Source: a virus. From it: a stretch of 64,000 nt of DNA. The stretch covers positions 1-64,000 of IMG/VR virus record IMGVR_UViG_3300033692_000004. One strand, 5' to 3'. Each line of letters opens with the position of its first letter. Position 1 is the first letter of the stretch. The notes beneath the pieces are model-generated. The model was given only the letters and a program-made list of their open reading frames with translations. It did not search any database and had not been told where the DNA came from. Shown here piece by piece: positions 1-13,410 of the stretch. The position numbers were made by a program, and so were the translations under genes.

Positions 1-1
1 C

Positions 2-1432
2 CAACCTTATCCGGTGAGAGATATTACAGGTACTATTATAGGTATGGGTATGCACAATGGTACTCTGTATAACGATAGTGACTTAAAAGAAGAGTATGGA
101 GTGCCTGATAAGTTAGAGTATATTGATGGAGAGGAAATTATAGAACACTCTCCTAATGATTCCCAAATATTATTTTGGACCCTACTGGTTAAGGAAGACT
201 ACTCTATTCTTGAAAAATACCAGGGGAGTGCTGCTTTAGCTTGGTTTGATTTCAGAGAGGATAGATTATATCTATTTAAAGGTAGTAGCAAATCTTATGA
301 AAAGGCCCTAAATGAAGTGGAAGAAAGACCTTTATACCTACTGAAAGAGAAGGATAATATATGGTTTTCTTCAGAAGAAACTCCCTTATGGGTTATTACT
401 CAGAAGCAATATCCTGAGATAGACAGTATAAGTAGTAATGAAATTCATGTATTTGAAGAGGGTAAGTTAATTGATACCATTAAAATTACTAGAAAAGCAG
501 GTCAATATAAAAAATCTACCTATAGTAGTAATTATAATACTGGATGGGGTAGCTATAAAAACAAACCATACAATAATTATGATGCTAAAAGGAACTCCTT
601 GCCTGCAAATACTACTACTAGTAAAGCCAATAAAATAGAGGAAGAAACTTTACCTATATTACATGAATCAATTGCTTATGCAAAAGGTAGGTATTGGGAT
701 AATAAAGGTAAAAAAGCACATGGTATTTATCATTTAGATAAAACCGGTAAGATTCATGACAAACCAAGTGGGGAATTTGCTTCAGAATGGGTTAAAACTA
801 AACCATATTATTTTATAGATGGCTGTATGATTACTGATCATATTAGCTTCCAAGAGTACATGAAAAAGTTTAAAGATAACGGTAATGATACTAAACAAAG
901 TTTCATTATGAAAGAACTATGTAGAGTATCAGTATATCCAGTACATAAATATGGTACTGATGATACAATGTGCTGTTGGAACAAAGATAGGAAAGATTGG
1001 TGGTATTTTACAGGGGAAATTACCCCCCTATTTAGTAGTAAAGAGTACGAATATATAAGAGGCAGTCTTAAAACAACCAATACTGGTACTTGGAAGTTTG
1101 CAGATCATTCTGATATATCAGAAGGGGAGTGGATTACTGACTCTAAAGAAGATGAATCAGCGGAAGCATATGAACAAGCCTATCAGGAGTATGAAAAGTA
1201 TAATAAATCCAATCCATTTTTAGAAAAACTACCTTTTGATGATGATTATGAGTCTCCTGAAGACCAAATGATTAAGAGAGAGGTTGTTAATGAAGTTGCA
1301 AATGCTTTGAAAAATATTCAAGATTGTATCAATGTAATACAAGTTTATGAAGGTAGTAAACCCGGTAATAAAGCTATTGCAGTATTAGAAGAAATTGAAA
1401 ATAAACTTTCTGAAATAGGTGATAATGATTAA
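2..1432 (+). CDS. Class-II (Ntn) glutamine-amidotransferase-like protein, 5'-truncated by the window edge, with a ~320-aa C-terminal part of unknown function
   Basis: The frame is open back to nt 2 (the track start at 14 is GTG). The N-part reads HNGTLYNDSDL...NDSQILF...GSAALAWFDFREDRLYLFKG...ERPLYLL...IWFSSEETPL. This matches the NGEIYN / SDSE / G.FA...D...L.L.RD / RPLYY / FASE blocks of PurF/AsnB-type GATase domains. The N-terminal Cys nucleophile would lie upstream of the window. No PP-loop (SGGxDS) in the C-part. Confidence 0.55.
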   Translation, partial: QPYPVRDITGTIIGMGMHNGTLYNDSDLKEEYGVPDKLEYIDGEEIIEHSPNDSQILFWTLLVKEDYSILEKYQGSAALAWFDFREDRLYLFKGSSKSYEKALNEVEERPLYLLKEKDNIWFSSEETPLWVITQKQYPEIDSISSNEIHVFEEGKLIDTIKITRKAGQYKKSTYSSNYNTGWGSYKNKPYNNYDAKRNSLPANTTTSKANKIEEETLPILHESIAYAKGRYWDNKGKKAHGIYHLDKTGKIHDKPSGEFASEWVKTKPYYFIDGCMITDHISFQEYMKKFKDNGNDTKQSFIMKELCRVSVYPVHKYGTDDTMCCWNKDRKDWWYFTGEITPLFSSKEYEYIRGSLKTTNTGTWKFADHSDISEGEWITDSKEDESAEAYEQAYQEYEKYNKSNPFLEKLPFDDDYESPEDQMIKREVVNEVANALKNIQDCINVIQVYEGSKPGNKAIAVLEEIENKLSEIGDND

Positions 1433-2846
1433 AGAAGTAATTACATACGATGGTAGCAAAGCTTTAAAGTCTAATTGTAGAAAATATGATGGTAAATATT
1501 ATGAAATAGGTAGACAATGTTTTAAAATGGATAACGGACGTTACTATCGTATTGATACAAATAAGATTATTTATGATTATGATACTAAAAAATATGTATT
1601 AAAGACTGATAACTATATTAGAGGTATAGTAGGTTTCAATAAAAAAGAGCTAATATACGGTTATTTTAAACCTAATAAATTTAAAAATGCTTACATATTT
1701 AATAGAGGTCCTGTACTAAACGAAGATATTATTACTAATGATTATGTAGAAGAGTTATCTTCAGGTAAATATTACCCAAAAGCATATGTTGGTAAAGGTT
1801 TTTATAAAAAAAGAGTGGGTGGTAGATATAGTAGAGAGACTGATTATAGTGTTAATTATAGATTAGATGAGTTTACAAAGACTTTTAATAATCATTTTGA
1901 AGCACCTATAATTAAGAACTTTTACAAAGAATTACCTAATAATGCTACCTATGGTATAGAATACGAAACCAATGCAGGGAGGGTACCGGAGAATAAGTGT
2001 ATGAAAACTGGTATGGTTCCTGTAAAAGATGGTAGCTTACGTAGATCTACAGGGATATCTTTTGAGTATGCAACTATAATATTGAATAAAAATAATGTAC
2101 TTCATGCTATTAAAGAGCATTGTAACTTACTGGATAGATATTGCACTAAAAGTGTTAATGAGAGCCTACATATTCATATAGGAGGTTATGAAAGGTCTGT
2201 TGAAATGTTGGTAGCGTTATATAGAACTATATCTGTATTACAGAAAGAACTATATGAAATGTTCCCACTATTTATTAAGAAGACAAGCCTATTTAAAAGA
2301 AGTCAAAAGAACTATTGTAAGCCCTTGCCTAAAAGTAAAATTACATATAAAGATTTTAAACATGATTTACGTTATATAATTAGATACTTATCTGACGGTA
2401 ATTTACATTATGAAGATTTTAGTTTAGGAATGCCTAACCCAGTAGATCCAGACGGATATCATAAATGGAATAGTAGGTCTAGATACTCTATATGTAATCT
2501 AAATCACTTTGCATTTAAAGGTACTGGTACTATTGAATTTAGAATGCATACTAATACTTTCAATAAAGATAAAATAGCAGCATGGTTGTTTATTATTACA
2601 TCTATAGTTGAGTATGCTAATAAAATTAAAAATGAGCCTTATTTTAACACTAAAATTAACCTCAGTAGTATTGTTACCCAATGCTATCAAAATAAGGTCT
2701 TAAAAGGCTATTTAAAGGCATATATTCAGTATCGTAAAGATCTTATGAAGTATAACCAAAATGTTCATAAAGATTTTATTGGGGTATTGGATGTAATGAA
2801 TGATAATCTAAATAATTTTAAATTCCCCATAAAAGAATTAGTATGA
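1425..2846 (+). CDS. Glutamine-synthetase-fold amidoligase (Amidoligase_2-type COOH-NH2 ligase)
   Basis: YGIEYETNAG, VPVKDGSLRR, ISFEYATIIL and VNESLHIHIGG reproduce the GxExE / DxSL / E-h-h-S / hHhHh blocks I remember for this family. ATG 1425 overlaps the upstream stop (ATGATTAA); the track start 1419 is GTG. Confidence 0.55.
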   Translation: MIKEVITYDGSKALKSNCRKYDGKYYEIGRQCFKMDNGRYYRIDTNKIIYDYDTKKYVLKTDNYIRGIVGFNKKELIYGYFKPNKFKNAYIFNRGPVLNEDIITNDYVEELSSGKYYPKAYVGKGFYKKRVGGRYSRETDYSVNYRLDEFTKTFNNHFEAPIIKNFYKELPNNATYGIEYETNAGRVPENKCMKTGMVPVKDGSLRRSTGISFEYATIILNKNNVLHAIKEHCNLLDRYCTKSVNESLHIHIGGYERSVEMLVALYRTISVLQKELYEMFPLFIKKTSLFKRSQKNYCKPLPKSKITYKDFKHDLRYIIRYLSDGNLHYEDFSLGMPNPVDPDGYHKWNSRSRYSICNLNHFAFKGTGTIEFRMHTNTFNKDKIAAWLFIITSIVEYANKIKNEPYFNTKINLSSIVTQCYQNKVLKGYLKAYIQYRKDLMKYNQNVHKDFIGVLDVMNDNLNNFKFPIKELV

Positions 2847-3521
2847 ATGGTACATGAAGAATTTGCAAAGAAGTTAGTAGGTAGTTGGTATAGGTTGTTA
2901 AGACCTATACTACTATCTGACTACTTTTATAAGTTACTGAAAACATTAGATAATGAATATTTGAGTAAAGAAATATATCCAGATAAGAAAAATGTATTTA
3001 AAGCATTTCAATTAACTAATTATGAAGATTTAAAAGTATTTATTATTGGACAAGACCCCTACCCAAACAATAGGGCTACAGGGCTAGCTTTTTCTAATAG
3101 TTTGGAATCAAATGGCCTTAGCCCATCTCTTAGAAAGATTAAGGAAAGGGTTGAACTTGGTTTTAATCAAACAAATCCCCTAGATAAAGATTTAACATTA
3201 TGGGCTAAACAGGGTATATTTTTATATAATACTATATTAACGGTAGAAAAAGGTAAACCTGGTAGTCACTATAAACTATGGAGAGAATTTACTAAACAAT
3301 TATTAATAAGATTATCAGAATATAATTCAGGTATAATATATTGTTTGTGGGGTAAACATGCTCAAAGCTATAAGCAATACATTAATACTAATTCTAATTA
3401 TATATTAGAAGCAGAACATCCATCATTTGCTGCTAGACAAGGTAGAATATGGAATTTTAATTTTAAAGAATTAGATCAGTTAATAAAAGATAATTATGAT
3501 ACTAATATAAATTGGTTATGA
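2847..3521 (+). CDS. ung: Uracil-DNA glycosylase, family-1-like
   Basis: FIIGQDPYPNNRATGLAFS corresponds to motif A (GQDPYH..GLxFS) with His->Pro. EAEHPSFAARQ corresponds to motif B (HPSPLS-like). 224 aa, typical UNG size. Confidence 0.7.
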   Translation: MVHEEFAKKLVGSWYRLLRPILLSDYFYKLLKTLDNEYLSKEIYPDKKNVFKAFQLTNYEDLKVFIIGQDPYPNNRATGLAFSNSLESNGLSPSLRKIKERVELGFNQTNPLDKDLTLWAKQGIFLYNTILTVEKGKPGSHYKLWREFTKQLLIRLSEYNSGIIYCLWGKHAQSYKQYINTNSNYILEAEHPSFAARQGRIWNFNFKELDQLIKDNYDTNINWL

Positions 3522-3913
3522 TTGATTTAGAAATTGAAAAGATTAAAGGTTTTTATAATACTGAATATAAATTTACAGATATTGCCACCGATAGTGTTAG
3601 TGATATTGGAAATTGTGTAAATTTTGTAGTACACGAAGATCCCAATGGTAATTGCCAAACTTTCGGGATAGCATATGCAGATGAGTTTACTGCTTACGGT
3701 AAAAAAGATATGAAAGACATCTTAAAAGCTGTTTGTAGGAAAGTTAATAAACATCAAATGCTACTAGATATTACAGAATATGATTCATATGCTATTCTAA
3801 AAAATCTCAAACCCTTTTCTAAGAAACAAAATATTAAGCGTTATATAAGTACTAATGGTAGTAAAATGATGCTTGTACTTGTAGTTCTCGATAGAAATAA
3901 AATATTTAAATAA
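3518..3913 (+). CDS. Hypothetical protein (131 aa)
   Basis: Long ORF in the operon frame. ATG 3518 overlaps the UDG stop (ATGA); the track start 3512 is TTG. No motif recognised. Confidence 0.55.
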   Translation: MIDLEIEKIKGFYNTEYKFTDIATDSVSDIGNCVNFVVHEDPNGNCQTFGIAYADEFTAYGKKDMKDILKAVCRKVNKHQMLLDITEYDSYAILKNLKPFSKKQNIKRYISTNGSKMMLVLVVLDRNKIFK

Positions 3914-3918
3914 TTTTG
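3911..3918 (+). promoter_or_regulatory. Candidate Bacteroidota -7 box (TAATTTTG = TAnnTTTG)
   Basis: Exact TAnnTTTG match 14 nt upstream of the ATP-grasp ATG. No clear -33 TTG partner, so weak. Confidence 0.2.
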
Positions 3919-3931
3919 TAACTAATTAATT

Positions 3932-4804
3932 ATGACTAGATTAAGAATTCTTCCATACGCAATGAATAGTTTATCTTCAAAAGCTATTTCTAAACATTTT
4001 AATACTAAACGTGTCTACCCTAACCGTAATTATAGGCCTAAAGATGGGGATGTAGTTCTTAATTGGGGGTTTAGAGGAGTCGCACCTGTGTTAGAAAATA
4101 GTAGCAGTAATTTCACTCTACTAAATAAGCCTATTGCTGTTGATAGAGCTTCTGATAAAATTGCTACTCTTAGATTACTTAAACAAAATAATGTAGCTCA
4201 TGTTAAATTCTTTTTAAATAAAGACGACGCTATTAAGTCTTGTGGAGAGGGTAATATTATTTATTGCAGAACTATTACCAGGGGTAGAGAAGGAAAAGGT
4301 ATTATTCTTGCTAAAACACCTGATGAGATAGTAGATGCTAGGTTATATACCGAATATTTTAAAAATGATAAGGAGTATCGTATTCACGTATTTAATGGTA
4401 AAGTAATTGATGAAGTTCAAAAGAAATCTATGTCTAGTGAGAGAATGGCACAGAAAGGCATAACTAGGACCGAGGATTCTGACTATATTCGCAATTTAAA
4501 GAAGGCGTGGTCGTTTTGTAGACAAGGTGTAGAAGCGGAAGATATTGTTAAAGAAACAGCTATTAAAGCCGTAGATGCTCTTGGATTAGATTTTGGCGCA
4601 GTAGACATTGCTTATAATTCTGAAACTAACGAGTGTAAAGTACTGGAAATCAATACCGCACCGGGACAAAAGAGACCTTCGTCAACCCATTACTCTTATA
4701 TAAAAGCGATTAGTGGATTTATGGGTATACCATATACTGCAAAAGACTATAAAGACAGGTACGGTTTAGATGTAATTGAATTAAACAATAGAGATGACAA
4801 ATAA
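3932..4804 (+). CDS. ATP-grasp ligase (RimK-like size class)
   Basis: KEYRIHVFNGKVIDEVQKK central strand. GLDFGAVDIAYN...CKVLEINTAPG gives the E-x-N metal/ATP site of the ATP-grasp C-domain. 290 aa. Confidence 0.7.
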   Translation: MTRLRILPYAMNSLSSKAISKHFNTKRVYPNRNYRPKDGDVVLNWGFRGVAPVLENSSSNFTLLNKPIAVDRASDKIATLRLLKQNNVAHVKFFLNKDDAIKSCGEGNIIYCRTITRGREGKGIILAKTPDEIVDARLYTEYFKNDKEYRIHVFNGKVIDEVQKKSMSSERMAQKGITRTEDSDYIRNLKKAWSFCRQGVEAEDIVKETAIKAVDALGLDFGAVDIAYNSETNECKVLEINTAPGQKRPSSTHYSYIKAISGFMGIPYTAKDYKDRYGLDVIELNNRDDK

Positions 4805-5399
4805 ATTTAAGAGTCAAGTAGAAGAATATTTTAGCTATTATTTAGAAGAGCTACAAGAAACTGGTTATATTAGGGAATGGTCATATGAAAGTGATACATT
4901 TGATTTAAGTGAATCAGTATCTGAGCCTTACTTACAACAAGGTAAATATAAGGTATTAGAAAAGGCCGAGCACTTACTTCATAAAGCTAGTATAACTGCT
5001 GATTTTACTGTAGTTTGGACAGATAAGGCTAAAAATATCTTCTACTTGGATAGAGGGGAGCCTATTGATTGTAATGCAAAAGATATACCATTTAGAATTA
5101 ACAATATGGGAGCGCCGACTTCTTATATTGAAGTTAAAGGCTCGCATGAAGCTAATACTAGCAGTAGTATATCGTTTCCTTACAAGCAAAAGTGGCTGTA
5201 TGATAAAGATGATATTTATATTCAAAAAATTAAGCCATTCGCACCTAAAACTAAGTCAGGTATATTATTTCAATCAACATTTACTCCTAAGAAAGTGATT
5301 GACATTGAGAGATATGCTAGAGATTGTAAATTTGGTAGAAAAGGTGATTCTAAATTGAAATATAATTATAAGACATTAAATCAATTTTTATATGAATAA
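4794..5399 (+). CDS. Hypothetical protein; possible PD-(D/E)xK nuclease fold
   Basis: ITADFTVVW followed 43 aa later by SYIEVKGSH resembles a D...ExK nuclease core. The spacing is long, so the functional call is weak. The ATG overlaps the upstream gene end. Confidence 0.35.
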   Translation: MTNKFKSQVEEYFSYYLEELQETGYIREWSYESDTFDLSESVSEPYLQQGKYKVLEKAEHLLHKASITADFTVVWTDKAKNIFYLDRGEPIDCNAKDIPFRINNMGAPTSYIEVKGSHEANTSSSISFPYKQKWLYDKDDIYIQKIKPFAPKTKSGILFQSTFTPKKVIDIERYARDCKFGRKGDSKLKYNYKTLNQFLYE

Positions 5400-5625
5400 A
5401 TTAGATGAAATAAAAGAAATTATTGGTGATGGTCTTGAATTTGGACAGGCTGATAAAAAAACAAGTGAAAAAGTCAATAATTTTATTGACTGTGTAGAAT
5501 CATCATATTGTCTAATTCAATGGCCAGATGTACAAGATTATATGGAAGAAGAATGGTTTGATGAAGAAGCTGTGTTGACTGATGATTCTGGTTATTTCGT
5601 ACCTTTTAAAAGAGTTTTTAAATAA
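5392..5625 (+). CDS. Hypothetical acidic protein (77 aa)
   Basis: ATG overlaps the upstream stop region. Consistent codon usage; no motif. Confidence 0.5.
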   Translation: MNKLDEIKEIIGDGLEFGQADKKTSEKVNNFIDCVESSYCLIQWPDVQDYMEEEWFDEEAVLTDDSGYFVPFKRVFK

Positions 5626-5636
5626 AGTCTAAATAA

Positions 5637-5849
5637 ATGCAATATACTAAATTAGATATTATTAAACACGCTAAGAAATATATTCGTGATGTAGAGGTTA
5701 AAAATGCTTTTATACAAGTAGTACATAATGATAGAAACCAAGGTCATAGTGCTAGAATTATATCAGAAGGACTTTGTGAAAGACATCCACGTAGTAACAG
5801 ATTTGCTGAATTAGATACAATGGTAATGGAATATTATAATTTTGGGTAA
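5637..5849 (+). CDS. Hypothetical protein (70 aa)
   Basis: ORF in operon orientation, 11 nt after the previous stop. Confidence 0.45.
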   Translation: MQYTKLDIIKHAKKYIRDVEVKNAFIQVVHNDRNQGHSARIISEGLCERHPRSNRFAELDTMVMEYYNFG

Positions 5850-5853
5850 CTAT

Positions 5854-5882
5854 AGAAATGTTTATAATTGGATTTCTTTTAA
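5854..5882 (+). terminator. Weak A/T-rich hairpin + T-run
   Basis: AGAAAT (5854-5859) pairs with ATTTCT (5872-5877), followed by TTTAAT. It sits in a 93-nt gap, one of the few real gaps in this arm. Confidence 0.25.
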
Positions 5883-5942
5883 TATAGACTACTGTATTGA
5901 TATAAATAGCAATGGAATTAACCAATAATAACTATTAAGGAT

Positions 5943-6197
5943 ATGGAATTATATAAAATAGTAGAGTTAAACGATTCAGGAGTAGAAAAAAATGATTTAT
6001 TACTAGTAAGAGCAAATTGCCGTACACAAGCGCTAGAAAAAGCTAGCATGTATTTAAATAATAAAGCAATTTATAGAACAGGATTTTACAATGCAATACA
6101 TATAAAAGATTCATACCATTATATCAACAATGGATTAATTACCGCTAAAAATAAATATAAAGCAATTAAAAAATTTTATAAAAATATTATTGAATAG
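5943..6197 (+). CDS. Hypothetical protein (84 aa)
   Basis: First ORF after the 93-nt gap. Confidence 0.5.
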   Translation: MELYKIVELNDSGVEKNDLLLVRANCRTQALEKASMYLNNKAIYRTGFYNAIHIKDSYHYINNGLITAKNKYKAIKKFYKNIIE

Positions 6198-6200
6198 TAT

Positions 6201-7208
6201 ATGGTAAATTTTAAAAATTTTTGTGAGAATATTACTGAAGAAGAGTATAGGGCTATAGAACGACCTTCATACTCTTTCTTCAAGGAATTAGATGACAAAG
6301 GGCCTTCTGTAATCAGGGATGGAATAGACTTTAAAATGAGTGCAGGATTGACTCTAGGTAGCATTGTAGACAACTTAATTACACAGGAAGACTATGATCC
6401 ACTGGAAGAGTATCATATTACTAATATAGCTCCTGATTTGTCTGGTAGCACTCATCATAGTAAGCTACTTAAATACGTATATGATAATGAAATTAAAGAT
6501 CCTAGTGAAGATATTTTAAAAGAAGCCTGTACTAAATTAGGTTTTAAGAAGAACCCATCATTAACTGATAGTAAATTTGAAGCCCAACTTAACATGGTTA
6601 AAGGTATGCTTAATGGTAAGAAATACCTTAATCAAAGAGAGTATGAACTAGCCATGCAAATGGCTGAGACATTACAATCTCTTGAATATACTAAAGATAT
6701 ATTTAATGATGGATTTGATTTAGAAGCTGTTAATCAAGCTATAATCTTATTTACTCTTAAAGGACTACCAGTTAAAAGTATGTTGGATAGAGTGTTAGTA
6801 GACCATAATAAGAAGATTATATATCCATATGATCTAAAAACTGGTGCATTCTATGACTTTATGCAAAACTTCTGGAAGTATAAATATTATCTACAAGGGG
6901 GTATGTACACTGCTGCTGTATATTATATTATAGAGAATCATCCAGAGTTTAAAGATTATACAGTAGAGCCATTTAGATTTGTATATATTTCTAGAGAAAG
7001 ACCAGATTTACCATTAGTGTATGAAATGCCTAAGAAGTTTATTGAATATGGTCTTACTGGTTGGACTACTATTGGTGGTAGGAAATATAAAGGAATACTT
7101 GAGCTAGTTGAAGATTATAAGTGGTATTTAGAAAATGATGAATATGATTTGACTAAAGAAATTGTAGAGAATAAGGGCTTAATTGAAATCAAAACACCTA
7201 TTGTATGA
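6201..7208 (+). CDS. RecB/Cas4-type PD-(D/E)xK exonuclease-like protein
   Basis: SMLDRVLVD ... IIYPYDLKTG ... YYLQGGMYTAAVYY correspond to the D / D-x-K / Q..hY blocks of RecB-family nucleases. No Cys cluster. Confidence 0.45.
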   Translation: MVNFKNFCENITEEEYRAIERPSYSFFKELDDKGPSVIRDGIDFKMSAGLTLGSIVDNLITQEDYDPLEEYHITNIAPDLSGSTHHSKLLKYVYDNEIKDPSEDILKEACTKLGFKKNPSLTDSKFEAQLNMVKGMLNGKKYLNQREYELAMQMAETLQSLEYTKDIFNDGFDLEAVNQAIILFTLKGLPVKSMLDRVLVDHNKKIIYPYDLKTGAFYDFMQNFWKYKYYLQGGMYTAAVYYIIENHPEFKDYTVEPFRFVYISRERPDLPLVYEMPKKFIEYGLTGWTTIGGRKYKGILELVEDYKWYLENDEYDLTKEIVENKGLIEIKTPIV

Positions 7209-8389
7209 AAGTAATTAAAAATAATATTGGTAATGAAGTTAAAATATTTGCAGAAACTTTTGAATATGAAGCCTATGATCAAATCAAAAAGCTGGCTAAC
7301 TTTGAACCATATCAAAACTCTAAGATCAGGATAATGCCTGATGCCCATGCTGGTAAAGGATGTACAGTAGGTACTACTATGACAATTACAGATAAAGTTA
7401 CACCTAATTTAGTAGGTGTGGATATTGGATGTGGAATGCTTACAGTTAAATTAAAAGATAATAGTATAGATTTTGAAAAACTAGATGAAGTTATAAATAC
7501 TAAAGTGCCTAGTGGTTTTTCTGTGCACCAATCTAGCAAAGACCATTTTAATTTTGACAATCTTAGATGTAAAGAACATGTAGATTTAGGTAGGGCAATA
7601 TTATCTATCGGTTCATTAGGTGGTGGTAATCACTTTATAGAGCTGAGTCAATCAAAAAATGATGGCAGCCTTTATCTAATTATTCACACTGGTAGCAGGA
7701 AGCTAGGTGGAGATACATGTAAATATTATCAAAACAAAGCCTTTAAGAATGTCAATGAGATGAAGGAAGTTAAAAATAATCTTATCAGTAAATTGAAGTC
7801 TGAAGGCCGTGAAAAATATATAGACTCAGAGATTAAAAAACTCAAGAAGCCTAGCGCAGATAAAGAATTGGCATTCTTAGAAGATAGTGATTTTAAGGAC
7901 TACATGAATGATATGAGAATTGTACAAGAATTTGCGATGATAAACAGAAAGGCTATTGCTGATATAATTATTAACGAATATGGGCTTGAAGAATTGAATA
8001 GGTTTGAAACAATCCACAATTATATTGACTTTAATCGTATGATTTTACGTAAAGGAGCTGTATCTGCTGAATTGGGAGAAACACTATTAATACCAATTAA
8101 CATGAGAGACGGTTCACTCCTTTGTAAGGGGAAAGGAAATGAGGATTGGAATTACTCAGCTCCTCATGGTGCAGGTAGGCTGATGAGCAGAAGTAAAGCT
8201 AAAGATAATATTGATCTAAATGAATTCACAGAATCAATGAAAGGTATTTATAGTTCTTCTGTAGGACAATCTACTTTAGATGAAGCCCCTCAGGCGTATA
8301 AATCAATTGAAGAAATCACATCTGCAATCAAAGATACTGTTGATATAATTGATATACTAAAGCCAGTGTATAATTTTAAAGCTCATTAA
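7205..8389 (+). CDS. rtcB: RNA 3'-phosphate/5'-OH ligase RtcB
   Basis: All hallmark blocks are present: MPDAHAGKGCTVG, VDIGCGM, GGGNHFIEL, IIHTGSRKLG, IHNYID, SAPHGAGR. 394 aa. Confidence 0.92.
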   Translation: MKVIKNNIGNEVKIFAETFEYEAYDQIKKLANFEPYQNSKIRIMPDAHAGKGCTVGTTMTITDKVTPNLVGVDIGCGMLTVKLKDNSIDFEKLDEVINTKVPSGFSVHQSSKDHFNFDNLRCKEHVDLGRAILSIGSLGGGNHFIELSQSKNDGSLYLIIHTGSRKLGGDTCKYYQNKAFKNVNEMKEVKNNLISKLKSEGREKYIDSEIKKLKKPSADKELAFLEDSDFKDYMNDMRIVQEFAMINRKAIADIIINEYGLEELNRFETIHNYIDFNRMILRKGAVSAELGETLLIPINMRDGSLLCKGKGNEDWNYSAPHGAGRLMSRSKAKDNIDLNEFTESMKGIYSSSVGQSTLDEAPQAYKSIEEITSAIKDTVDIIDILKPVYNFKAH

Positions 8390-8417
8390 TATTTAATTGT
8401 GAAGTTGGAAGAGGCGT

Positions 8418-8912
8418 ATGAATAAATCAAAAAGTTACATTTTACCACTAGTTCTATATGATTATCAAGAAAATGTACAAAAACTTCTAGATAATATAGA
8501 AAATACCTTTGTAAGATACAAGGAAAAAGATTATGTATTGGTATTAACTTTATTTAAAGATAATTTAACACTAGAGTTTTTTGATTACTATAAAAACTTA
8601 CCTATCTTTGCCGACTTTTCCGAAACAGATACTAAATATATCTTAGTATTAAGTGTACCAGAAGAGTCTCTAGAAGATTACGATAAGTTTATTGCTGGTA
8701 AATACAGTAAGATTAGTGAATCAAGTAAGGAAAAGATTATTAAGTTTACTTACAAATATTACCCATTACAACTATATGATACTATAAGTAAGGTAGTATA
8801 TAGAGATCCACAATTAATTAAGGAATGGATAGAATATCTTAATCTTACAGAATTCCCAGAAGATGTAGAACTAAGTAGTAAAATTGACTTAATTAAAGAA
8901 ACTTATGGCTAG
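8418..8912 (+). CDS. Hypothetical protein (164 aa)
   Basis: Long ORF between rtcB and phoH whose end overlaps the phoH start. No motif recognised. Confidence 0.55.
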   Translation: MNKSKSYILPLVLYDYQENVQKLLDNIENTFVRYKEKDYVLVLTLFKDNLTLEFFDYYKNLPIFADFSETDTKYILVLSVPEESLEDYDKFIAGKYSKISESSKEKIIKFTYKYYPLQLYDTISKVVYRDPQLIKEWIEYLNLTEFPEDVELSSKIDLIKETYG

Positions 8913-9558
8913 AACTCCTAAAGGTCCAATTCTAAAGTATAACGAAAGCCTCAGCCCTGATCAGCATGAGGCTAAGAAAGTCATTAAAACCAGTGATATC
9001 AGCTGTTTAAAAGGTAAAGCTGGGTCAGGTAAAACTAGAATAGCTGTAACCTATGCTCTGGAGCAATATGCTCTAGGGCGTAAAAATGGTGGTATAGAAA
9101 AAATTGTAATAACTAGACCCCCTGTATTTAAGAAGGATCATAACATTGGCTTTCTCCCAGGTTCGATTTCAGAAAAATATTCGCCGTGGATCACTCCTCT
9201 GTATGAGATAGTTACAGAGATTGAAGGGGTGGAAGAATATGAGGAACTAGTTAAAAATAATATATTACAGATAGTACCTACAATGTTTATTCAAGGTAGA
9301 ACTTTCAGTAATGCTGTAGTTATTATTGATGAAGCTCAGAATCTTACCAGAGATGATACCATTGGGTTTTTCACCAGATTAGGCAAGAATTCTCAAATGA
9401 TATTTTGTGGAGACACTAATCAGTGTATTATTGACAAAAAAGAGTCTGGTTTTGAAAGGTTATGTGAGATGTCCAGAATAATAGACGGTATAAATATTTA
9501 CGAATTAGAGACTAATTGGAGACACCCTATTATTGAAGAACTGTTAAATGAGTATTAA
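8905..9558 (+). CDS. phoH: PhoH-like ATPase
   Basis: GKAGSGKT (Walker A), VVIIDEAQNLT (Walker B), FCGDTNQC. 217 aa. Confidence 0.88.
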   Translation: MARTPKGPILKYNESLSPDQHEAKKVIKTSDISCLKGKAGSGKTRIAVTYALEQYALGRKNGGIEKIVITRPPVFKKDHNIGFLPGSISEKYSPWITPLYEIVTEIEGVEEYEELVKNNILQIVPTMFIQGRTFSNAVVIIDEAQNLTRDDTIGFFTRLGKNSQMIFCGDTNQCIIDKKESGFERLCEMSRIIDGINIYELETNWRHPIIEELLNEY

Positions 9559-9582
9559 TATTAATTAAACTAAATTTTATAC

Positions 9583-11454
9583 ATGAATAGTAATATGGAT
9601 AGAAGTAGAGAGATTTTAAGTGAGATTACTATTTTTAACAAGTACGCAAGATATTTGCCTAATGAAGAGCGCAGGGAAACATGGTCTGAAATTGTAGATA
9701 GAAATATGTCAATGCATTTATCTAAGTTTCCTGAAATAGAAGATGATATTAAATGGGCATATCAATTTGTATATGATAAAAAAATACTCCCCTCTATGAG
9801 AAGTATGCAGTTTGCTGGACAAGCTTCAGAAATTAACCCCGCTAGGTTATATAATTGTAGTTTTATGGCAATTAATGACTATAGAGCTTTTCAGGAAACT
9901 ATGTTTCTATTATTAAGTGGGAGTGGGGTAGGATATTCTGTACAAGACCATCACGTAGAGCAATTACCTGATATACGTAAGCCTAATCCTAATAGGGTCA
10001 GGAGATATGTAATAGGCGATAGTATAGTAGGTTGGGCTGACTCTATTAAAGTATTAATGAAATCTTACTTTGGCAAAATAAGTTCTACTATACAATTTGA
10101 TTTCAGTGATATTAGACCTAAAGGAAGTCTACTTATTACTAGTGGAGGTAAAGCGCCTGGTCCTCAGCCATTAAAGGAATGTCTAATTAAGGTTAGGGGA
10201 GTACTAGATTCAAAAGAAGAAGGTACTAAACTAACTCCACTGGAAGTACATGATATAATGTGTCATATTGCAGATGCAGTATTGTCGGGTGGTATTAGAC
10301 GTGCTGCACTAATTGCCTTATTTTCAATAGATAATAAAGAAATGTTATCTTGCAAAACAGGTAATTGGTGGGAGCTTAATCCGCAAAGAGGTCGTGCTAA
10401 TAATAGTGCTGTAGTTGTTAGATCAAGAGCTACTAAAGTTGATTTCTATAAATTATGGGATTATATTAAAAACTCTGGTAGTGGAGAGCCGGGTATATCG
10501 TGGACTAATAACCCTGAATATGGATTCAATCCGTGTCATGAAATTAGTTTACAATCAGAACAAATGTGTAATTTGACCGAGGTCAACGTTTCTAATATAG
10601 AATCACAGAAAGATCTTAATGACAGAGTCAAAGCAGCAACTATTATTGGTACATTACAAGCAAGCTATACAGATTTTCATTACTTGAGGGACAGTTGGCG
10701 CAAGAATTGCGAAAAAGACGCATTATTAGGTGTTTCTATGACAGGTATTGCATCAATGAATGTATTTGATTATAATATTTCAGAAGCAGCTGATTTGGCC
10801 GTTAAAATCAATAAAGAGTTTGCTAACAAGATAGGTATTAAACCAGCTGCTAGAGTAACAACTGTTAAGCCAGCGGGTACAACAAGTCTAGTATTAGGAA
10901 CATCATCTGGTATACATGCTTGGCATGATAAGTATTACTGGCGTAGAATGAGAATTAATAAAAATGAAGCTATTTATACTTATCTTAGTATATATCACCC
11001 TGAATTATTAGAAGATGATTATTTTAATCCAGATACTACAGCTGTTATATCTGTACCTCAAAAAGCACCAGAGGGCTCTGTAACTAGAGAAGAATCTGCC
11101 TTAGATTTACTAAATAGAGTTCATTCTATTACAGATAAATGGGTTAAACCCGGTTTTAATACTGGTTACAATCAGCATAATGTAAGTTGTACAGTTTCTA
11201 TACGAGATAATGAATGGGACGAAGTAGCTAATTGGATGTGGATTAATAGGGATTTGTATAGTGGGATATCTGTATTACCTCATTCAGATCATAGCTATAA
11301 ACAAGCACCCTTTGAATCATGTACAGAAGAGGAATATAATAATGCTATTGAGAGTTTAAATAATATTGATTTAAGTAAAGTAGTAGAAACTTATGACAAT
11401 ACAGATTTGCAAGGGGAACTAGCTTGTTCTGGAGGTAATTGCGAAATATCTTAA
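9583..11454 (+). CDS. nrdJ: Ribonucleotide reductase, probably class II (adenosylcobalamin-dependent, NrdJ-like)
   Basis: NPCHEISL is the N-x-C-x-E catalytic loop. Also TVKPAGTTS loop and a C-terminal CSGGNCEIS Cys pair. 623 aa without an ATP-cone, and no beta-subunit gene nearby. The N-terminal FNKYARY...RETWSEIVDRN resembles NrdJ starts. Confidence 0.7.
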   Translation: MNSNMDRSREILSEITIFNKYARYLPNEERRETWSEIVDRNMSMHLSKFPEIEDDIKWAYQFVYDKKILPSMRSMQFAGQASEINPARLYNCSFMAINDYRAFQETMFLLLSGSGVGYSVQDHHVEQLPDIRKPNPNRVRRYVIGDSIVGWADSIKVLMKSYFGKISSTIQFDFSDIRPKGSLLITSGGKAPGPQPLKECLIKVRGVLDSKEEGTKLTPLEVHDIMCHIADAVLSGGIRRAALIALFSIDNKEMLSCKTGNWWELNPQRGRANNSAVVVRSRATKVDFYKLWDYIKNSGSGEPGISWTNNPEYGFNPCHEISLQSEQMCNLTEVNVSNIESQKDLNDRVKAATIIGTLQASYTDFHYLRDSWRKNCEKDALLGVSMTGIASMNVFDYNISEAADLAVKINKEFANKIGIKPAARVTTVKPAGTTSLVLGTSSGIHAWHDKYYWRRMRINKNEAIYTYLSIYHPELLEDDYFNPDTTAVISVPQKAPEGSVTREESALDLLNRVHSITDKWVKPGFNTGYNQHNVSCTVSIRDNEWDEVANWMWINRDLYSGISVLPHSDHSYKQAPFESCTEEEYNNAIESLNNIDLSKVVETYDNTDLQGELACSGGNCEIS

Positions 11455-11457
11455 TAT

Positions 11458-11622
11458 ATGGAAGAAAATTTATTACTAGAAGCTATTAATACACCTTATA
11501 CAGAGTGGCAAACAATTACAGATTTAATTGATAAGACAAATGATTATGTATTAAAAGAACGATTAAGACGTATTATGATTGAAAAGCATCATACAGAAGA
11601 ATATTATACTGGTAACTTATAA
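11458..11622 (+). CDS. Micro-ORF (54 aa), hypothetical
   Basis: ATG 3 nt after the nrdJ stop. Translation: MEENLLLEAINTPYTEWQTITDLIDKTNDYVLKERLRRIMIEKHHTEEYYTGNL. Below the ORF-track length cutoff. Fills an otherwise empty gap. Confidence 0.35.
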   Translation: MEENLLLEAINTPYTEWQTITDLIDKTNDYVLKERLRRIMIEKHHTEEYYTGNL

Positions 11623-11631
11623 AACTAATTT

Positions 11632-11802
11632 ATGTTATATTGTATAGAAGTAGATAGAAGTGGATTGCCCGAAGAAAATATGGTACTTCACTATGATTTT
11701 GATAAAGAACCTACTAGAGAGGAAATTATAGAGAGGGTTATAGCAGAGGATTGTGGCTATGATGACCATTACTGTAAAGTAGATTATTATAGGGTTAACT
11801 AA
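11632..11802 (+). CDS. Micro-ORF (56 aa), hypothetical
   Basis: Translation: MLYCIEVDRSGLPEENMVLHYDFDKEPTREEIIERVIAEDCGYDDHYCKVDYYRVN. Preceded and followed by the identical 15-nt junction TAAAACTAATTTATG. Confidence 0.35.
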   Translation: MLYCIEVDRSGLPEENMVLHYDFDKEPTREEIIERVIAEDCGYDDHYCKVDYYRVN

Positions 11803-11811
11803 AACTAATTT

Positions 11812-12246
11812 ATGCTAAATATTAAGATTAAACCAACACATACTAATTTTATACCCCCAACTAAAGGTAGCGAATATGCTGCCTGTTGGGATGTATATGC
11901 TGCTGATATTAAACGAATAGATTTTGGTAAGTATGAAGTAGATCTAGGGTTTGCTACTGAAATTCCAGAAGGATATAAAGGTGTTATTGTACCTAGAAGT
12001 AGTATTACTAAGACAGAACTTATTATGCAAAATAGTCCTGCTCAAATTGATTCTGATTATAGAGGTAATTGGAAAATTAAATTTCTATATATGATTGATG
12101 TAGGAGATAATGACTTCCCATATCAAGTGGGAGACAGAGTAGCCCAGATTTATTTTGAAAAAGTTGAACCATTTAATTGGGATCTTGTTAATATACTATC
12201 AGATACTAATAGAGGTTCTGGAGGATTTGGTAGTACAGGTAAATAA
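11812..12246 (+). CDS. dut: dUTP pyrophosphatase (trimeric dUTPase)
   Basis: VPRSS, IDSDYRG, GDRVAQ and C-terminal RGSGGFGSTG (motif 5). 144 aa. Confidence 0.9.
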   Translation: MLNIKIKPTHTNFIPPTKGSEYAACWDVYAADIKRIDFGKYEVDLGFATEIPEGYKGVIVPRSSITKTELIMQNSPAQIDSDYRGNWKIKFLYMIDVGDNDFPYQVGDRVAQIYFEKVEPFNWDLVNILSDTNRGSGGFGSTGK

Positions 12247-12256
12247 TTAATTTAAT

Positions 12257-13345
12257 ATGATTCACGTATATGACATAGAAACACTTCCCAACATATTCTG
12301 TTTAGTAGCCAAAGATATTAATACTAAACAGATACATACATTTGAAATAAGTTATAGATTAAACCAGGTTGATAGGTTGATTAAATACCTATCATCCCCT
12401 GGTTTAAAACATATAGGTTATAATAATCTTGCATTTGATTATCCTGTAATACATTGGTTACTTAATAACTATTATAAATATAAAAATACTGATGAACTTA
12501 TATTAGCAATACATAACTATGCCAATTATATAATTAGTTTAGAGTATTCAACTGTACGAGATAGAGATGTAAAAATACCACAATTAGATTTATATAAAAT
12601 ATGGCATTTTGATAATAAGGCTAAAGCAACATCTCTCAAAGCACTTGAAATTGCTATGCGAATGGAAACTGTACAAGATTTACCATTTGGTAATAAAGAA
12701 GAAGTACCGTTAGAATATTTTAATGATGTTATTAATTACTGTATAAATGATGTGGATGCTACACATAAATTTTATCTAGAGTCTAAAAATGAGATTATAT
12801 TACGTCAAGATTTATCAAAAGAACACGATCTCGATTTAATAAATGCTAACGATCCTAAAATAGGTGAACAAATATTTCTTAGCAAATTAGCTACTGAAAT
12901 GAATATAAATAAGTGGGATCTTAAAAAAATGCGTACTTATGTAGATAAACTAGAGTTTAACAAGTATATACTGGATATTATTAAGTTTCAAACTCCAGAA
13001 CTAAATACTTTATTAAATAAAATTAAATCATTTACTACTACAGATACTAAAGGTAGTTTTCATTATTCAGCTAAATTAGGTGATTTTACAATAGACTATG
13101 GTCAAGGCGGACTGCATGGTTGTATTGAACCTGGAGTATATGAATCTGATGAAAATAAAGTAATTTTAGATCTTGATGTAGCTAGTTTTTATCCAAATCT
13201 TGCAATTGTAAATAATATTAGACCTAGACATTTAGGAGAAGCATTTAGTAATATATATAAAGATATGTATTTTAAACGTAAATCTATACCTAAATCTGAT
13301 TCTAGGAACTATGGATTAAAGATAGCATTAAACGGTTCATTTGGT
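12257..13345 (+). CDS. Family-B DNA polymerase, exon 1 (3'-5' exonuclease domain plus palm motifs A and B)
   Basis: VYDIETLPN (Exo I), YNNLAFDYPV (Exo II), YCINDVDAT (Exo III), LDVASFYPNLA (motif A, DxxSLYPS), KIALNGSFG (motif B, KxxxNSxYG). The frame then hits TAA at 13346-13348, which I read as the first intron codon. Confidence 0.8.
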
Positions 13346-13410
13346 TAAGATAAAGTTTATAATAGATTAAATTAAAGTCGCATTTACTTGCGTTTTACAT
13401 TATTATTTAT

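Follow-up and report, generated by a model that had tools for sequence, protein, structure and literature searches.

Positions 2–4804 of the window, the 64,000-nucleotide stretch of viral DNA analyzed here, constitute the downstream two-thirds of one copy of a widespread phage locus, the amidoligase cassette ('peptidoglycan modification cassette'). The cassette in the window is real, but it belongs to an already known type of phage locus. We hypothesize that its products form an ATP-driven line for the assembly and trimming of glutamate/glutamine-type amides, a reading that we consider probable, though not strongly so. Judged by sequence, the catalytic residues are intact in all five cassette enzymes.

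The genes for GAT2, Amidoligase_2, a uracil-DNA glycosylase (UDG), a 131-aa ORF, and an ATP-grasp ligase lie closely packed on one strand (+), to which all coordinates below refer. The GAT2 stop and the amidoligase start overlap by 8 nt (ATGATTAA), the amidoligase and UDG genes abut directly, UDG overlaps the 131-aa ORF by 4 nt, and an 18-nt gap precedes the ATP-grasp gene, which in turn overlaps the next ORF (4794..5399) by 11 nt. The packing of the genes agrees with a preliminary description of the cluster. The carrier is an uncultured crAss-like phage. A 96.6-kb JGI contig matches the window at 100% identity and restores the genes upstream: primase, a pair of uncharacterized paralogues, GGACT, an uncharacterized ORF of 123 aa, the COOH-NH2 ligase, another such ORF of 205 aa, and GAT2 at its full length of 594 aa. 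The 5' end that had been noted as missing is thereby recovered, and the cassette continues upstream of the window, with the complete order GGACT, 123-aa ORF, COOH-NH2 ligase type 2, 205-aa ORF, GAT2, Amidoligase_2, [UNG], 131-aa ORF, ATP-grasp.

Description of the cassette is credited to Iyer et al. 2009 (Mol Biosyst) and Hardies et al. 2013 (J Virol) in section 16 of PMC5498523 and in PMC10580990, and the cassette is named also in PMC6209634. Published carriers are phiEco32, 7-11, LUZ24, PaP3, tf, PA11, RIO-1, and CW02, and the annotations of phi14:2 (g037–g042), cr108_1, Lbo-JY46, UFV-P2 (LUZ24-like), Kuravirus 172-1, and CVT22 list the same genes. The copy described here shares with the published cassette the same families (Amidoligase_2, class-II GATase, COOH-NH2 ligase type 2 (PF14395), phrog_2599 ATP-grasp, and GGCT/GGACT) and the same tight, co-directional layout in the early/replication module beside primase, but it differs in its crAss-like carrier, its gene order, the lack of a Peptidase_C26-like gene, and the separation of the amidoligase from the ATP-grasp by UNG and the 131-aa ORF. 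The preliminary description had presented the ATP-grasp as an extension of a known pair, whereas the phrog_2599 ATP-grasp belongs regularly to the cassette as published, alongside the COOH-NH2 ligase, GGCT/GGACT, and Peptidase_C26-like proteins. The literature on the cassette that we found consists of genome reports and hypotheses, with no experiment on any member, and the earlier statement that no function is established is upheld.

We surveyed 43 dereplicated related loci from 22 phage lineages (38 loci in a first survey). GAT2, Amidoligase_2, and the COOH-NH2 ligase are present in every one. The amidoligase/GATase pairing is a known neighborhood, as the preliminary description states. The ATP-grasp is found in 39 of the 43 loci, the exceptions (L040–L042 and L045) being MAG contigs, three of them short. 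This co-occurrence is not due to chance, and the gene-neighborhood survey suggested earlier has shown the core genes to be co-conserved. A gamma-glutamyl-cleaving accessory gene (C26-like and/or GGACT) also accompanies all 43 loci; C26-like peptidases occur in 38, and the remaining five, this phage included, have GGACT without C26. The GGACT of this phage is recognized by Pfam (E 2.4e-20) and contains the YGTL and LEG motifs, and the catalytic residues of the COOH-NH2 ligase are intact.

GAT2, a class-II (Ntn) glutamine amidotransferase-like protein, is encoded by 2..1432 from residue 119 to residue 594 of 594; the ORF runs off the 5' edge of the window, and the nucleophile Cys28, preceded by a hydrophobic leader of 27 aa, lies among the 118 residues encoded upstream. 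In Pfam, the window ORF matches GATase_7 (E 1.9e-4) and GATase_6 (E 3.2e-4), both under the gathering score, and the full-length protein reaches 25.9 bits (E 1.1e-5) with GATase_6 (cut-off 27). The evidence for the assignment comes from profile and fold comparisons. A profile built from 40 homologues matches PurF (E 5e-10) with Cys28 placed on the Ntn Cys1, and a Foldseek search with the AF2 model (mean pLDDT 84.9 for the full protein) gave E values between 1e-9 and 1e-7 for AsnB, GlmS, PurF, and EgtC. The residues invariant in the 40 homologues (C28-G29, R56-G57, G100-H101-x-R103, H136-N137-G138-T139, and D171) align with PurF Cys1, Arg26/Gly27, Arg73, Asn101/Gly102, and Asp127. The likeness to PurF, GlmS, and AsnB extends over the N-terminal Cys nucleophile, the Arg, Asn-Gly, and Asp residues of the glutamine pocket, and the fold, but GAT2 has no recognizable synthase domain, carrying a small beta-hairpin domain instead, and its leader is long and hydrophobic. 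A strongly hydrophobic leader of 20–30 aa precedes the nucleophile Cys in about 30 of the 40 homologues; B. subtilis PurF also has a propeptide ahead of its Cys.

Within the window, alignment, a PDB profile match, and Foldseek delimit the C-terminal two-thirds of the Ntn glutaminase-type domain (2..520, residues 119–291), with the HNGT codons at 53–64 and that of Asp171 at 158–160. A low-complexity, N/Y/G/K-rich linker follows (521..628, residues about 292–327), which is predicted to be disordered (pLDDT <50, residues 292–326) and varies in length among the homologues, where its columns are gapped and unconserved. The family-specific beta-hairpin C-domain (629..1129, residues 328–494), delimited by AF2, HMM, and alignment, contains the motifs GRY, HGIY, YYFxxGxM, YP, and YTGxxxPLFS; its invariant residues are Gly, Phe, Tyr, and Pro only, with no conserved polar residues. 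Modeled alone, the domain has a pLDDT of 88, and no PDB fold matched it significantly, the best being the TcdA CROPs (E 0.035, probability 0.18). In BFVD it matches only the GAT2s of phi14:2 and cr108_1, its HMM identifies GAT2 at each of the 38 loci surveyed first, and an exhaustive HMMER search recovered 45 proteins, every one of the same architecture; the HMM detects no such domain in 172-1 and CVT22. Alignment and AF2 models define the remainder (1130..1432, residues 495–594 and the stop codon) as an acidic, helical tail with a LPFDDDYESPED segment, and in some homologues the tail region carries DnaJ-type CxxCxGxG zinc fingers. The C-terminal region that the preliminary description could not place is real and consists of this family-only domain and helical tail, with no known relative.

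Amidoligase_2, a GS-like carboxylate-amine ligase of 473 aa (1425..2846, from the ATG at 1425), scores 40.7 bits with PF12224 (cut-off 22) and matches phrog_2443 (1.9e-26); a PDB sequence search gave no match. An N-terminal beta-rich domain (1425–1928) precedes the catalytic domain (1929–2843), in which GxExE 177–181 (nt 1953–1967), DGS 202–204, EYxT 214–217, HxHxG 249–253 (nt 2169–2183), RY..N 353–358, and TxExR 369–373 (nt 2529–2543) are invariant. The RimK-like ATP-grasp ligase (3932..4804) scores 24.2 bits with PF08443 (cut-off 21), matches phrog_2599 (2e-61), and is covered end to end by RimK/alpha-L-glutamate ligase structures at low identity, with the invariants K76, E148-Y149-R150-x-H152, K164, D225, E239, and N241. 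It is 32–38% identical to the cassette ATP-grasps of Kuravirus and CVT22 type, and 16–21% to those of other crAss-like phages, the relative L010 excepted. Here and in L010 it is placed downstream of UDG rather than upstream as usual. Given this divergence and its position apart from the rest, we infer its partnership with the other cassette genes from family membership. The GATase-like, Amidoligase_2, ATP-grasp, and UDG assignments made beforehand were correct by Pfam, PHROG, profile, and structure matches, with PF12224 and PF08443 above cut-off and the sub-threshold GATase_6/7 backed by profile and fold.

The UDG (2847..3521) is a family-1 enzyme (UNG) that matches PF03167 (E 1.7e-15) and B. 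subtilis UNG (3zoq, 1.8e-39), with its GQDPY (Asp70) and HPS motifs in register. Of the 102 phage records that contain a homologue, most lack the cassette, and UDG adjoins the amidoligase in crAss-like loci only. It is not a functional insert: crAss-like phages without the cassette have homologous UNGs at the same position. The gene is an ordinary one for repair or replication from the replication module of crAss-like phages, and it lies within the cassette without being one of its components. The primase–UDG interval is a cargo slot. In four other members of the same subfamily, the Asinivirinae (crAss001, cr111_1, cr128_1, and DAC15), the syntenic slot holds a five-gene block in place of the cassette, in which a ThiF (E1-like) gene adjoins one that is annotated as a metalloprotease and matches JAB weakly (Prok-JAB, E 5e-4, under cut-off). 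Like the cassette, this block sets an enzyme that activates carboxylates beside a putative amide hydrolase, but in unrelated folds, and none of its genes has a homologue in the window.

The cassettes of phi14:2 (a cultured crAss-like phage) and cr108_1 (uncultured) occupy the same primase–UDG slot as that in the window and share the order COOH-NH2 ligase, GAT2, amidoligase, UDG, as well as the GAT2 C-domain (Foldseek 6.6e-8 and 3.6e-6) and the amidoligase N-domain. Like this phage, phi14:2 has GGACT and no C26 gene. Amidoligase identity is only 28%, however, and in both phages the ATP-grasp lies upstream beside GGACT or primase, in contrast to the ATP-grasp of a different subtype downstream of UDG here.

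The chemistry of the GS-like, GCS-like, RimK-like, Ntn-GATase, C26, and GGACT families is established. By analogy, the two GS/GCS-fold ligases and the RimK-like ATP-grasp would each convert a carboxylate to an acyl-phosphate and couple the activated group to an amine. GAT2, with a seemingly complete gamma-glutamyl (glutamine) binding pocket and a gene that appears translationally coupled to Amidoligase_2, would either pass ammonia from glutamine to the activated carboxylate or remove gamma-glutamyl groups, its sequence being compatible with both. GGACT may free a gamma-glutamyl-linked amine as 5-oxoproline, an accessory role presumably taken by Peptidase_C26-like proteins in most other phages; as this phage lacks these common peptidases, its pathway may differ. 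The GAT2 C-domain and the amidoligase N-domain, both without conserved polar residues, are most likely docking or acceptor-binding modules. Similar logic is found in the gamma-glutamyl carrier/protecting-group pathways PuuA/PuuD (polyamines), EgtA/EgtC (ergothioneine), GMAS/NMG synthase (methylamine), and BtrJ/BtrG (butirosin), in which a GS/GCS-fold or ATP-grasp ligase adds gamma-glutamyl and an enzyme of the Ntn-GATase, C26, or GGCT-fold type later takes it off. The EgtC fold match and the pairing of ligase with remover suggest this likeness, which does not imply orthology, and the phage set differs in its three ligases and phage-specific extra domains.

The alternative that survives best, although unlikely, is that published for the cassette, again credited to Iyer et al. 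2009 and Hardies et al. 2013 (PMC5498523 and PMC10580990): the ligases build or alter peptidoglycan stem-peptide links and the hydrolases trim them, so that the altered surface excludes superinfecting phages. The hydrophobic leader could put a GAT2 pro-enzyme at the membrane, and the YYFxxGxM motif resembles cell-wall-binding repeats. Clostridial toxin CROPs, the best fold match of the C-domain, are related to such repeats, and ligases of related folds make the gamma-glutamyl and D-Ala-D-Ala-type bonds of stem peptides. These resemblances of fold and motif are under significance, however, with no CW_binding Pfam match even at E<=10; all of the ligases require cytoplasmic ATP; the cassette sits in an early/replication module; the locus survey found no conserved Mur-type ligase, transpeptidase, flippase, or secretion signal; and we found no experimental support in the literature. 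Some cassette contigs were binned with MAGs of the wall-less Anaeroplasmataceae, which is weak evidence because binning is not proof of host.

It is also doubtful that the cassette tags phage or host proteins, the ligases adding glutamate or a short peptide at a carboxylate or lysine and GAT2, C26, and GGACT processing or removing the tag. RimK performs such an attachment on S6 and PafA, one of the GS/GCS-fold ligases, performs one with Pup, and GGACT acts on epsilon-(gamma-glutamyl)lysine. The full-length RimK likeness of the ATP-grasp and the pairing of GS/GCS-fold ligases with amide hydrolases in one locus, as in PafA/Dop pupylation, are consistent with such tagging, and the non-catalytic beta-hairpin domains of GAT2 and the amidoligase, like the zinc fingers in the tails of certain GAT2 homologues, hint at partners that are macromolecules. 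In 45 loci, however, the cassette has beside it no small tag or substrate protein that is conserved, S6-like and Pup-like genes included, and no modified protein is known. The ThiF and JAB-like genes in the same slot point the same way, but such replacement indicates exchangeable cargo rather than the same job, and the JAB match is weak.

An auxiliary metabolic role, raising host glutamine/glutamate/glutathione turnover or nitrogen assimilation to feed phage replication without a dedicated product, is suggested in PMC10945688 for a phage associated with Planctomycetes whose genes bear the same names, and in PMC10580990 for OM43 phages, although the growth experiments in these papers do not test these genes. 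All cassette families handle glutamate/glutamine derivatives, but the distance of the amidoligase and GAT2 from housekeeping enzymes, the phage-specific domains, and inheritance as a fixed multi-enzyme set make this very improbable; in one genome scan, moreover, the cassette occurred only on phage-looking MAG contigs, the other bacterial matches being lone amidoligase homologues at four Planctomycetes MAG loci. Least probable of all is the nucleotide or DNA-modification role raised in the preliminary description, for which we found no specific support: a glutamyl or amide group on a precursor or phage DNA base would explain the neighboring primase (in crAss-like, LUZ24-like, and Kuravirus genomes), the UDG, and nucleotide-metabolism genes such as the PRPP synthetase adjoining the cassette in Lbo-JY46, and PurF is the closest sequence to GAT2, but Pfam and fold searches found no PRTase or other nucleotide-binding domain in GAT2, the locus survey found no conserved DNA-binding, base-flipping, kinase, or glycosylase-like transferase gene, the phage encodes ThyX, dUTPase, RNR, and normal UNG, a set for canonical thymine DNA, and the UDG and cargo slot are accounted for above.

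Two further ORFs flank the ATP-grasp. The lineage-specific 131-aa ORF (3518..3913) matched no Pfam or PHROG family and none of the profiles of the cassette families; it was found only here, in L010 (two tandem copies at the same position), and in L016, far from the cassette. The 201-aa ORF that overlaps the ATP-grasp stop (4794..5399) occurs together with the relocated ATP-grasp only here and in L010.

ORF finding over positions 1-5400 of the window revealed a single tightly packed run of ORFs, all on the + strand. The first, open at the window edge (2-1432, +), encodes GAT2, a class-II (Ntn) glutamine amidotransferase-like protein for which Pfam gave GATase_7 at E 1.9e-4 and GATase_6 at E 3.2e-4, neither of which reaches the gathering score. 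It is followed by an Amidoligase_2 gene (1425-2846, +; PF12224, 40.7 bits against a cut-off of 22; phrog_2443, 1.9e-26), a UDG gene (2847-3521, +; Pfam, E 1.7e-15), a 131-aa ORF with no Pfam or PHROG family (3518-3913, +) and a RimK-type ATP-grasp gene (3932-4804, +; PF08443, 24.2 bits against a cut-off of 21; phrog_2599, E 2e-61). The GAT2 and amidoligase genes overlap by 8 nt (ATGATTAA), with the gene callers starting the amidoligase at the ATG at 1425 and the ORF finder at an upstream GTG at 1419; the two genes are translationally coupled, and their products may act as partners. The amidoligase and UDG genes abut directly, the UDG gene and the 131-aa ORF share 4 nt, an 18-nt gap lies 5' of the ATP-grasp gene, and this last gene overlaps the next ORF by 11 nt. 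The packed order of GATase-like gene, amidoligase, UDG, 131-aa ORF and ATP-grasp in the preliminary description is confirmed by these ORFs, family matches and junctions, and the 5' end of the GATase-like gene that it reported as missing was recovered upstream.

The exact UDG protein was found on 16 public contigs, the longest of which is a 96.6-kb JGI metagenome contig (locus L004) that is 100% identical to the window over window positions 1-13000. Upstream of the window this contig carries, in order, the primase, ORFs of 161 and 231 aa, a GGACT gene (L004 4584-4928; PF06094, E 2.4e-20), a 123-aa ORF, a phiEco32-type COOH-NH2 ligase gene (L004 5276-6157; PF14395, 33 bits against a cut-off of 25; phrog_3815, 2.9e-40), a 205-aa ORF and the full-length GAT2 gene, encoding 594 aa. 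The 161- and 231-aa ORFs between primase and GGACT (L004 3411-3896 and 3877-4572) are tandem paralogues (hhalign probability 100%), and relatives of them, for which no family was found, occupy the same place in L010, a relative of the window phage, and in the surveyed loci L014, L022 and L024. The amidoligase has its closest annotated relatives, at 28% identity, in the cultured Cellulophaga phage phi14:2 and the uncultured phage cr108_1 (Steigviridae, Asinivirinae). A nucleotide search of window 1-6000 against phages gave no match, a promoter and terminator scan gave no difference from shuffled sequence, and a tRNA search found none.

The window locus is another member of an amidoligase cassette that has been known since 2009 and of which a cultured crAss-like phage already has an annotated copy. 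The window phage carries the cassette genes Amidoligase_2, the class-II GATase-like gene, COOH-NH2 ligase, ATP-grasp and, as the gamma-glutamyl-cleaving accessory, GGACT. In phi14:2 the annotation after the primase reads gamma-glutamyl cyclotransferase, ATP-grasp ("S6 glutaminyl transferase"), COOH.NH2 ligase, aminotransferase, amidoligase and UDG; cr108_1 has this set together with class-I GATase-like genes, and the set is annotated likewise in cyanophage Lbo-JY46. The LUZ24-like phage UFV-P2 lists COOH-NH2_lig, amidoligase, GATase, ATP-grasp and AIG2/GGCT, followed by primase/helicase, and cassette families are also listed for phage tf, the PA11-like phage TC6, Kuravirus 172-1 and Citrobacter phage CVT22. 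Recognition of the phage amidoligase cassette is reportedly owed to Iyer 2009 and Hardies 2013. The relevant passage of PMC5498523 gives it as conserved in RIO-1, phiEco32, 7-11, PA11, tf, MR299-2, LUZ24, PaP3 and CW02 and, with reference to Iyer et al. and to Hardies et al. 2013, hypothesizes that it alters the cell surface and so prevents superinfection; PMC10580990 repeats this hypothesis and says that the function awaits exploration, and PMC10945688 speculates on a role in nitrogen metabolism. A full-text literature search found no experimental characterization of the cassette and no product or phenotype for any member. Hundreds of sequenced phages carry it (the ATP-grasp alone matches 313 phage records), among them crAss-like phages of the gut and Pseudomonas and E. 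coli phages that are candidates for therapy, and identifying its product would close a sizeable gap in phage biology, the description dating from 2009. Because cultured carriers already exist, the window makes the question of the product no easier to test.

To place the locus among its relatives, we surveyed 29 viral-contig loci, 16 genome or MAG loci and annotated phages, scoring ORFs with HMMs of the cassette proteins; the 43 dereplicated loci with enough sequence correspond to 22 lineages at 50% amidoligase identity. GAT2, Amidoligase_2 and the COOH-NH2 ligase were present in 43/43, and the gene-neighborhood survey thereby bears out the co-conservation that the preliminary description gave for the amidoligase and GATase-like pair. 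An ATP-grasp was found in 39 of the 43, the loci without one (L040-L042 and L045) being MAG contigs, three of them short, where the gene possibly lies beyond the fetched stretch. Peptidase_C26-like genes were found in 38/43, in one to three copies each (PF07722 confirmed on representatives), and GGACT in 14/43. Every surveyed locus has a C26-like gene, a GGACT or both, and five have GGACT only: the window phage, in whose cassette no C26-like gene was detectable, L010, phi14:2, L013 and L049. Within the surveyed clade the COOH-NH2 ligase gene always precedes GAT2, and GAT2 the amidoligase; the UDG adjoins the amidoligase in crAss-like loci only. All-against-all clustering of 45 loci yielded no further universal family and no conserved small tag or substrate protein. 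In a scan of bacterial genomes, the cassette occurred solely on phage-like MAG contigs, the other matches being four Planctomycetes MAG loci with a lone amidoligase homologue. In many large-phage loci (L015, L018, L020, L025, L029, L031-L034, L036 and L037) the COOH-NH2 ligase gene (about 6400-8350) is in two ORF pieces 0.15-1.1 kb apart, which suggests an intervening element or a frameshift.

We examined the conserved residues of GAT2 in an alignment of 40 homologues (A1). Invariant are Cys28-Gly29, Arg56-Gly57, Gly100-His101-x-Arg103, His136-Asn137-Gly138-Thr139 and Asp171, and in a profile comparison with the PDB (E 5e-10) these align with Cys1, Arg26/Gly27, Arg73, Asn101/Gly102 and Asp127 of PurF. 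The glutamine-pocket residues Arg-103, Asn-137-Gly-138 and Asp-171 are the equivalents of PurF Arg-73, Asn-101-Gly-102 and Asp-127, so that the predicted pocket for the gamma-glutamyl moiety is complete; the nucleophile Cys-28 is encoded upstream of the window. The full-length protein still scores below the Pfam gathering values (25.9 against 27 for GATase_6 and 21.2 against 25 for GATase_7), and an AF2 model (pLDDT 84.9) matches AsnB, GlmS, PurF and EgtC in Foldseek; with the whole model as query, these matches covered the Ntn domain alone. Judged from these residues, the leaving group could be either ammonia, as in a glutaminase, or a larger amine, as in an EgtC-like hydrolase. No recognizable synthase domain that would receive ammonia is fused to GAT2, and its C-domain has no synthase relative in fold or sequence. 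In about 30 of the 40, the Cys is preceded by a strongly hydrophobic leader of 20-30 residues, and six homologues start Met-Cys. As in other Ntn enzymes, this leader would presumably have to be removed for activity. It is predicted to form a helix (L004 6802-6885, A1 columns 1-35), and such a membrane-like propeptide is unusual on an amidotransferase of cytoplasmic type.

The C-terminus of GAT2 consists of a disordered linker, a 160-residue beta-hairpin domain modeled with confidence (pLDDT 88) and a helical acidic tail. The preliminary description had been unable to place this region, and that judgment is upheld, as PDB, Pfam and HMMER searches gave no relative outside the GAT2 family. In the PDB the C-domain has no significant structural neighbor, the best being the TcdA CROP repeats (Foldseek E 0.035, probability 0.18); YwqK/MORN matches reached just E 0.05-0.9, and there was no Pfam match at E<=10. 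The C-domain has no significant match in sequence or fold to cell wall-binding, CROP or MORN beta-hairpin repeats, and homology to the amidoligase N-domain was rejected (hhalign probability 1.6%). A viral structure library gave matches to the phi14:2 and cr108_1 orthologues only. The C-domain HMM finds GAT2 in 38/38 loci of the first survey and has no match in the Kuravirus or CVT22 GAT2, and HMMER, run exhaustively over 1.84 billion representatives, returned 45 proteins, all with the domain at one position of one architecture. Because its invariant positions in the 40 homologues are Gly, Phe, Tyr and Pro only, we read the domain as a putative non-catalytic module for docking or binding. Pairs of DnaJ-type CxxCxGxG zinc fingers are inserted in the tails of some homologues (P0009, P0013, P0016, P0024, P0028, P0081, P0102 and P0109; A1 columns about 830-880), where the window GAT2 has an acidic LPFDDDYESPED segment instead; these zinc fingers aside, the longer homologues have no fused domain that would tie the cassette to another function.

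The ligases likewise retain their family motifs. Invariant in the amidoligase are GxExE, DGS, EYxT, HxHxG, RY..N and TxExR, preceded by a beta-rich N-domain of ~165 residues that is at least partly present in all loci; the amidoligase profile gave no match to PDB sequences at E<=1. The COOH-NH2 ligase has invariant GxDxE, HxH and GxExR motifs, and the ATP-grasp has invariant Lys-76, Glu-148-Tyr-149-Arg-150 (EYR-H), Asp-225, Glu-239 and Asn-241 and matches RimK-family structures over its full length (7qyr, 2.7e-9; 5zct, 9e-7). The name "S6 glutaminyl transferase" that databases give this protein is an annotation transfer. The window ATP-grasp belongs to the same PHROG (phrog_2599) as those of phi14:2, cr108_1, Lbo-JY46 and the large-phage loci; it shares 59% identity with that of L010 and 16-21% with the other crAss-like and metagenomic cassette ATP-grasps aligned, and from the 313 phage records matched, those of Kuravirus, CVT22, Klebsiella and Vibrio phages reach 32-38%. 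In the window phage and L010 the gene lies with the 131-aa and a 201-aa ORF on the far side of the UDG. This position and the divergent sequence suggest that the ATP-grasp gene was relocated or replaced. Peculiarities of the window locus are the ATP-grasp beyond the UDG, the absence of a C26 peptidase and the lineage-specific small ORFs. The 123-, 205-, 131- and 201-aa ORFs, like the unplaced domains, gave nothing usable in Pfam at E<=10, and hhalign rejected these ORFs as diverged Peptidase_C26 or members of another cassette family.

Five enzyme families with intact catalytic residues are thus inherited as a set. Going by family chemistry, the set would carry out three ATP-dependent carboxylate-amine ligations via acyl-phosphates, GAT2 would either feed glutamine-derived ammonia to one of the ligases or strip a gamma-glutamyl group, and GGACT, or elsewhere the C26 peptidases, would remove gamma-glutamyl groups. 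An ever-present cleaving accessory would fit the logic of a gamma-glutamyl carrier or protecting group. Such carriers and protecting groups are known from the Puu, ergothioneine, methylamine and butirosin pathways.

The surroundings of the cassette were compared with those of other crAss-like phages. The UDG is a family-1 UNG, matching B. subtilis UNG (3zoq) at 1.8e-39 over residues 10-223, with the GQDPY (residues 68-72, including the catalytic Asp) and HPS motifs aligned. A UNG homologue is found in 102 phage records, most of the cultured crAss-like phages among them; three phages in the same collection have the amidoligase. Phages crAss001, cr111_1, cr128_1 and DAC15 share a backbone of primase, interval, UDG, resolvase, exonuclease, RNR and dUTPase, and in these four the amidoligase cassette is absent and the interval is a conserved five-gene block (L055 867-6089 in crAss001, L056 3467-8013 in cr111_1, L057 3227-7983 in cr128_1 and L058 3057-7983 in DAC15) encoding a ThiF/E1-like protein (PF00899, 8e-16) and an annotated metalloprotease that matches Prok-JAB weakly (E 5e-4). 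Because the same backbone holds either the cassette or the ThiF/JAB-like block between primase and UDG, the interval is a cargo slot and the UDG a backbone gene, and the two modules look mutually exclusive at this one syntenic position. Homology of the 123-, 205-, 131- and 201-aa ORFs to genes of the ThiF block was rejected.

With respect to the acceptor, the tagging of a protein is compatible with the non-catalytic domains and with the alternation of the slot between cassette and ThiF/JAB-like block, and it has against it that no tag or substrate gene is conserved across the 45 loci. The published idea that the cassette alters the cell wall is a conjecture, which is neither helped nor excluded by the leader of GAT2, although hydrophobic, or by the weak resemblance of its C-domain to CROP repeats. 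Modification of DNA or nucleotides sits badly with a cassette in which no nucleic acid-handling component is conserved, and matches the ThyX, dUTPase and UNG set poorly; a generic metabolic booster is hard to reconcile with phage-specific domains and a fixed set of genes. Protein tagging can be taken one step further, to the joint proposition that the slot holds one of two mutually exclusive modules and that, as functional analogues, they make the cassette a phage system for covalent protein conjugation, which we regard as a long shot. If it were true, the cassette would follow the logic of ubiquitin conjugation or pupylation but use gamma-glutamyl or peptide chemistry, and its targets would be host or replisome proteins; the beta-hairpin domain of GAT2 would recognize the target, and the hydrophobic propeptide would act as the switch for activation. 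What the comparison itself adds is the constant core, the ever-present gamma-glutamyl-cleaving accessory, the private C-domain and usual propeptide of GAT2, and the alternation at the slot. The cassette contigs L040-L042 were binned as Anaeroplasmataceae, a wall-less family; such a host, if right, would argue against a peptidoglycan target, although binning of phage contigs is unreliable.

The remainder of the window, judged by its predicted genes, is that of a crAss-like phage, with a major head protein, large virion proteins, class-II RNR, dUTPase, ThyX, RtcB, PhoH, an RNA ligase and a split DNA polymerase. Two divergently oriented arms meet near 22-23 kb, where the sign of the GC skew switches, and the virion-gene arm includes a single ORF of 4111 aa (27135-39470, - strand). 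The DNA polymerase is present as two ORFs that align with phrog_1252 positions 54-412 and 414-651 and have a GIY-YIG endonuclease ORF between them (12257-13348, 13434-14258 and 14536-15420), which suggests either that an intron or homing endonuclease was inserted or that the polymerase is a split one. Shortly 3' of it, a 145-aa ORF (16145-16582) has NUMOD1 DNA-binding motifs typical of homing endonucleases. The RtcB RNA ligase, a second RNA ligase (PF09414) and PhoH lie in one arm (7205-8389, 19543-20181 and also 8905-9558) and possibly form a tRNA/RNA repair set.
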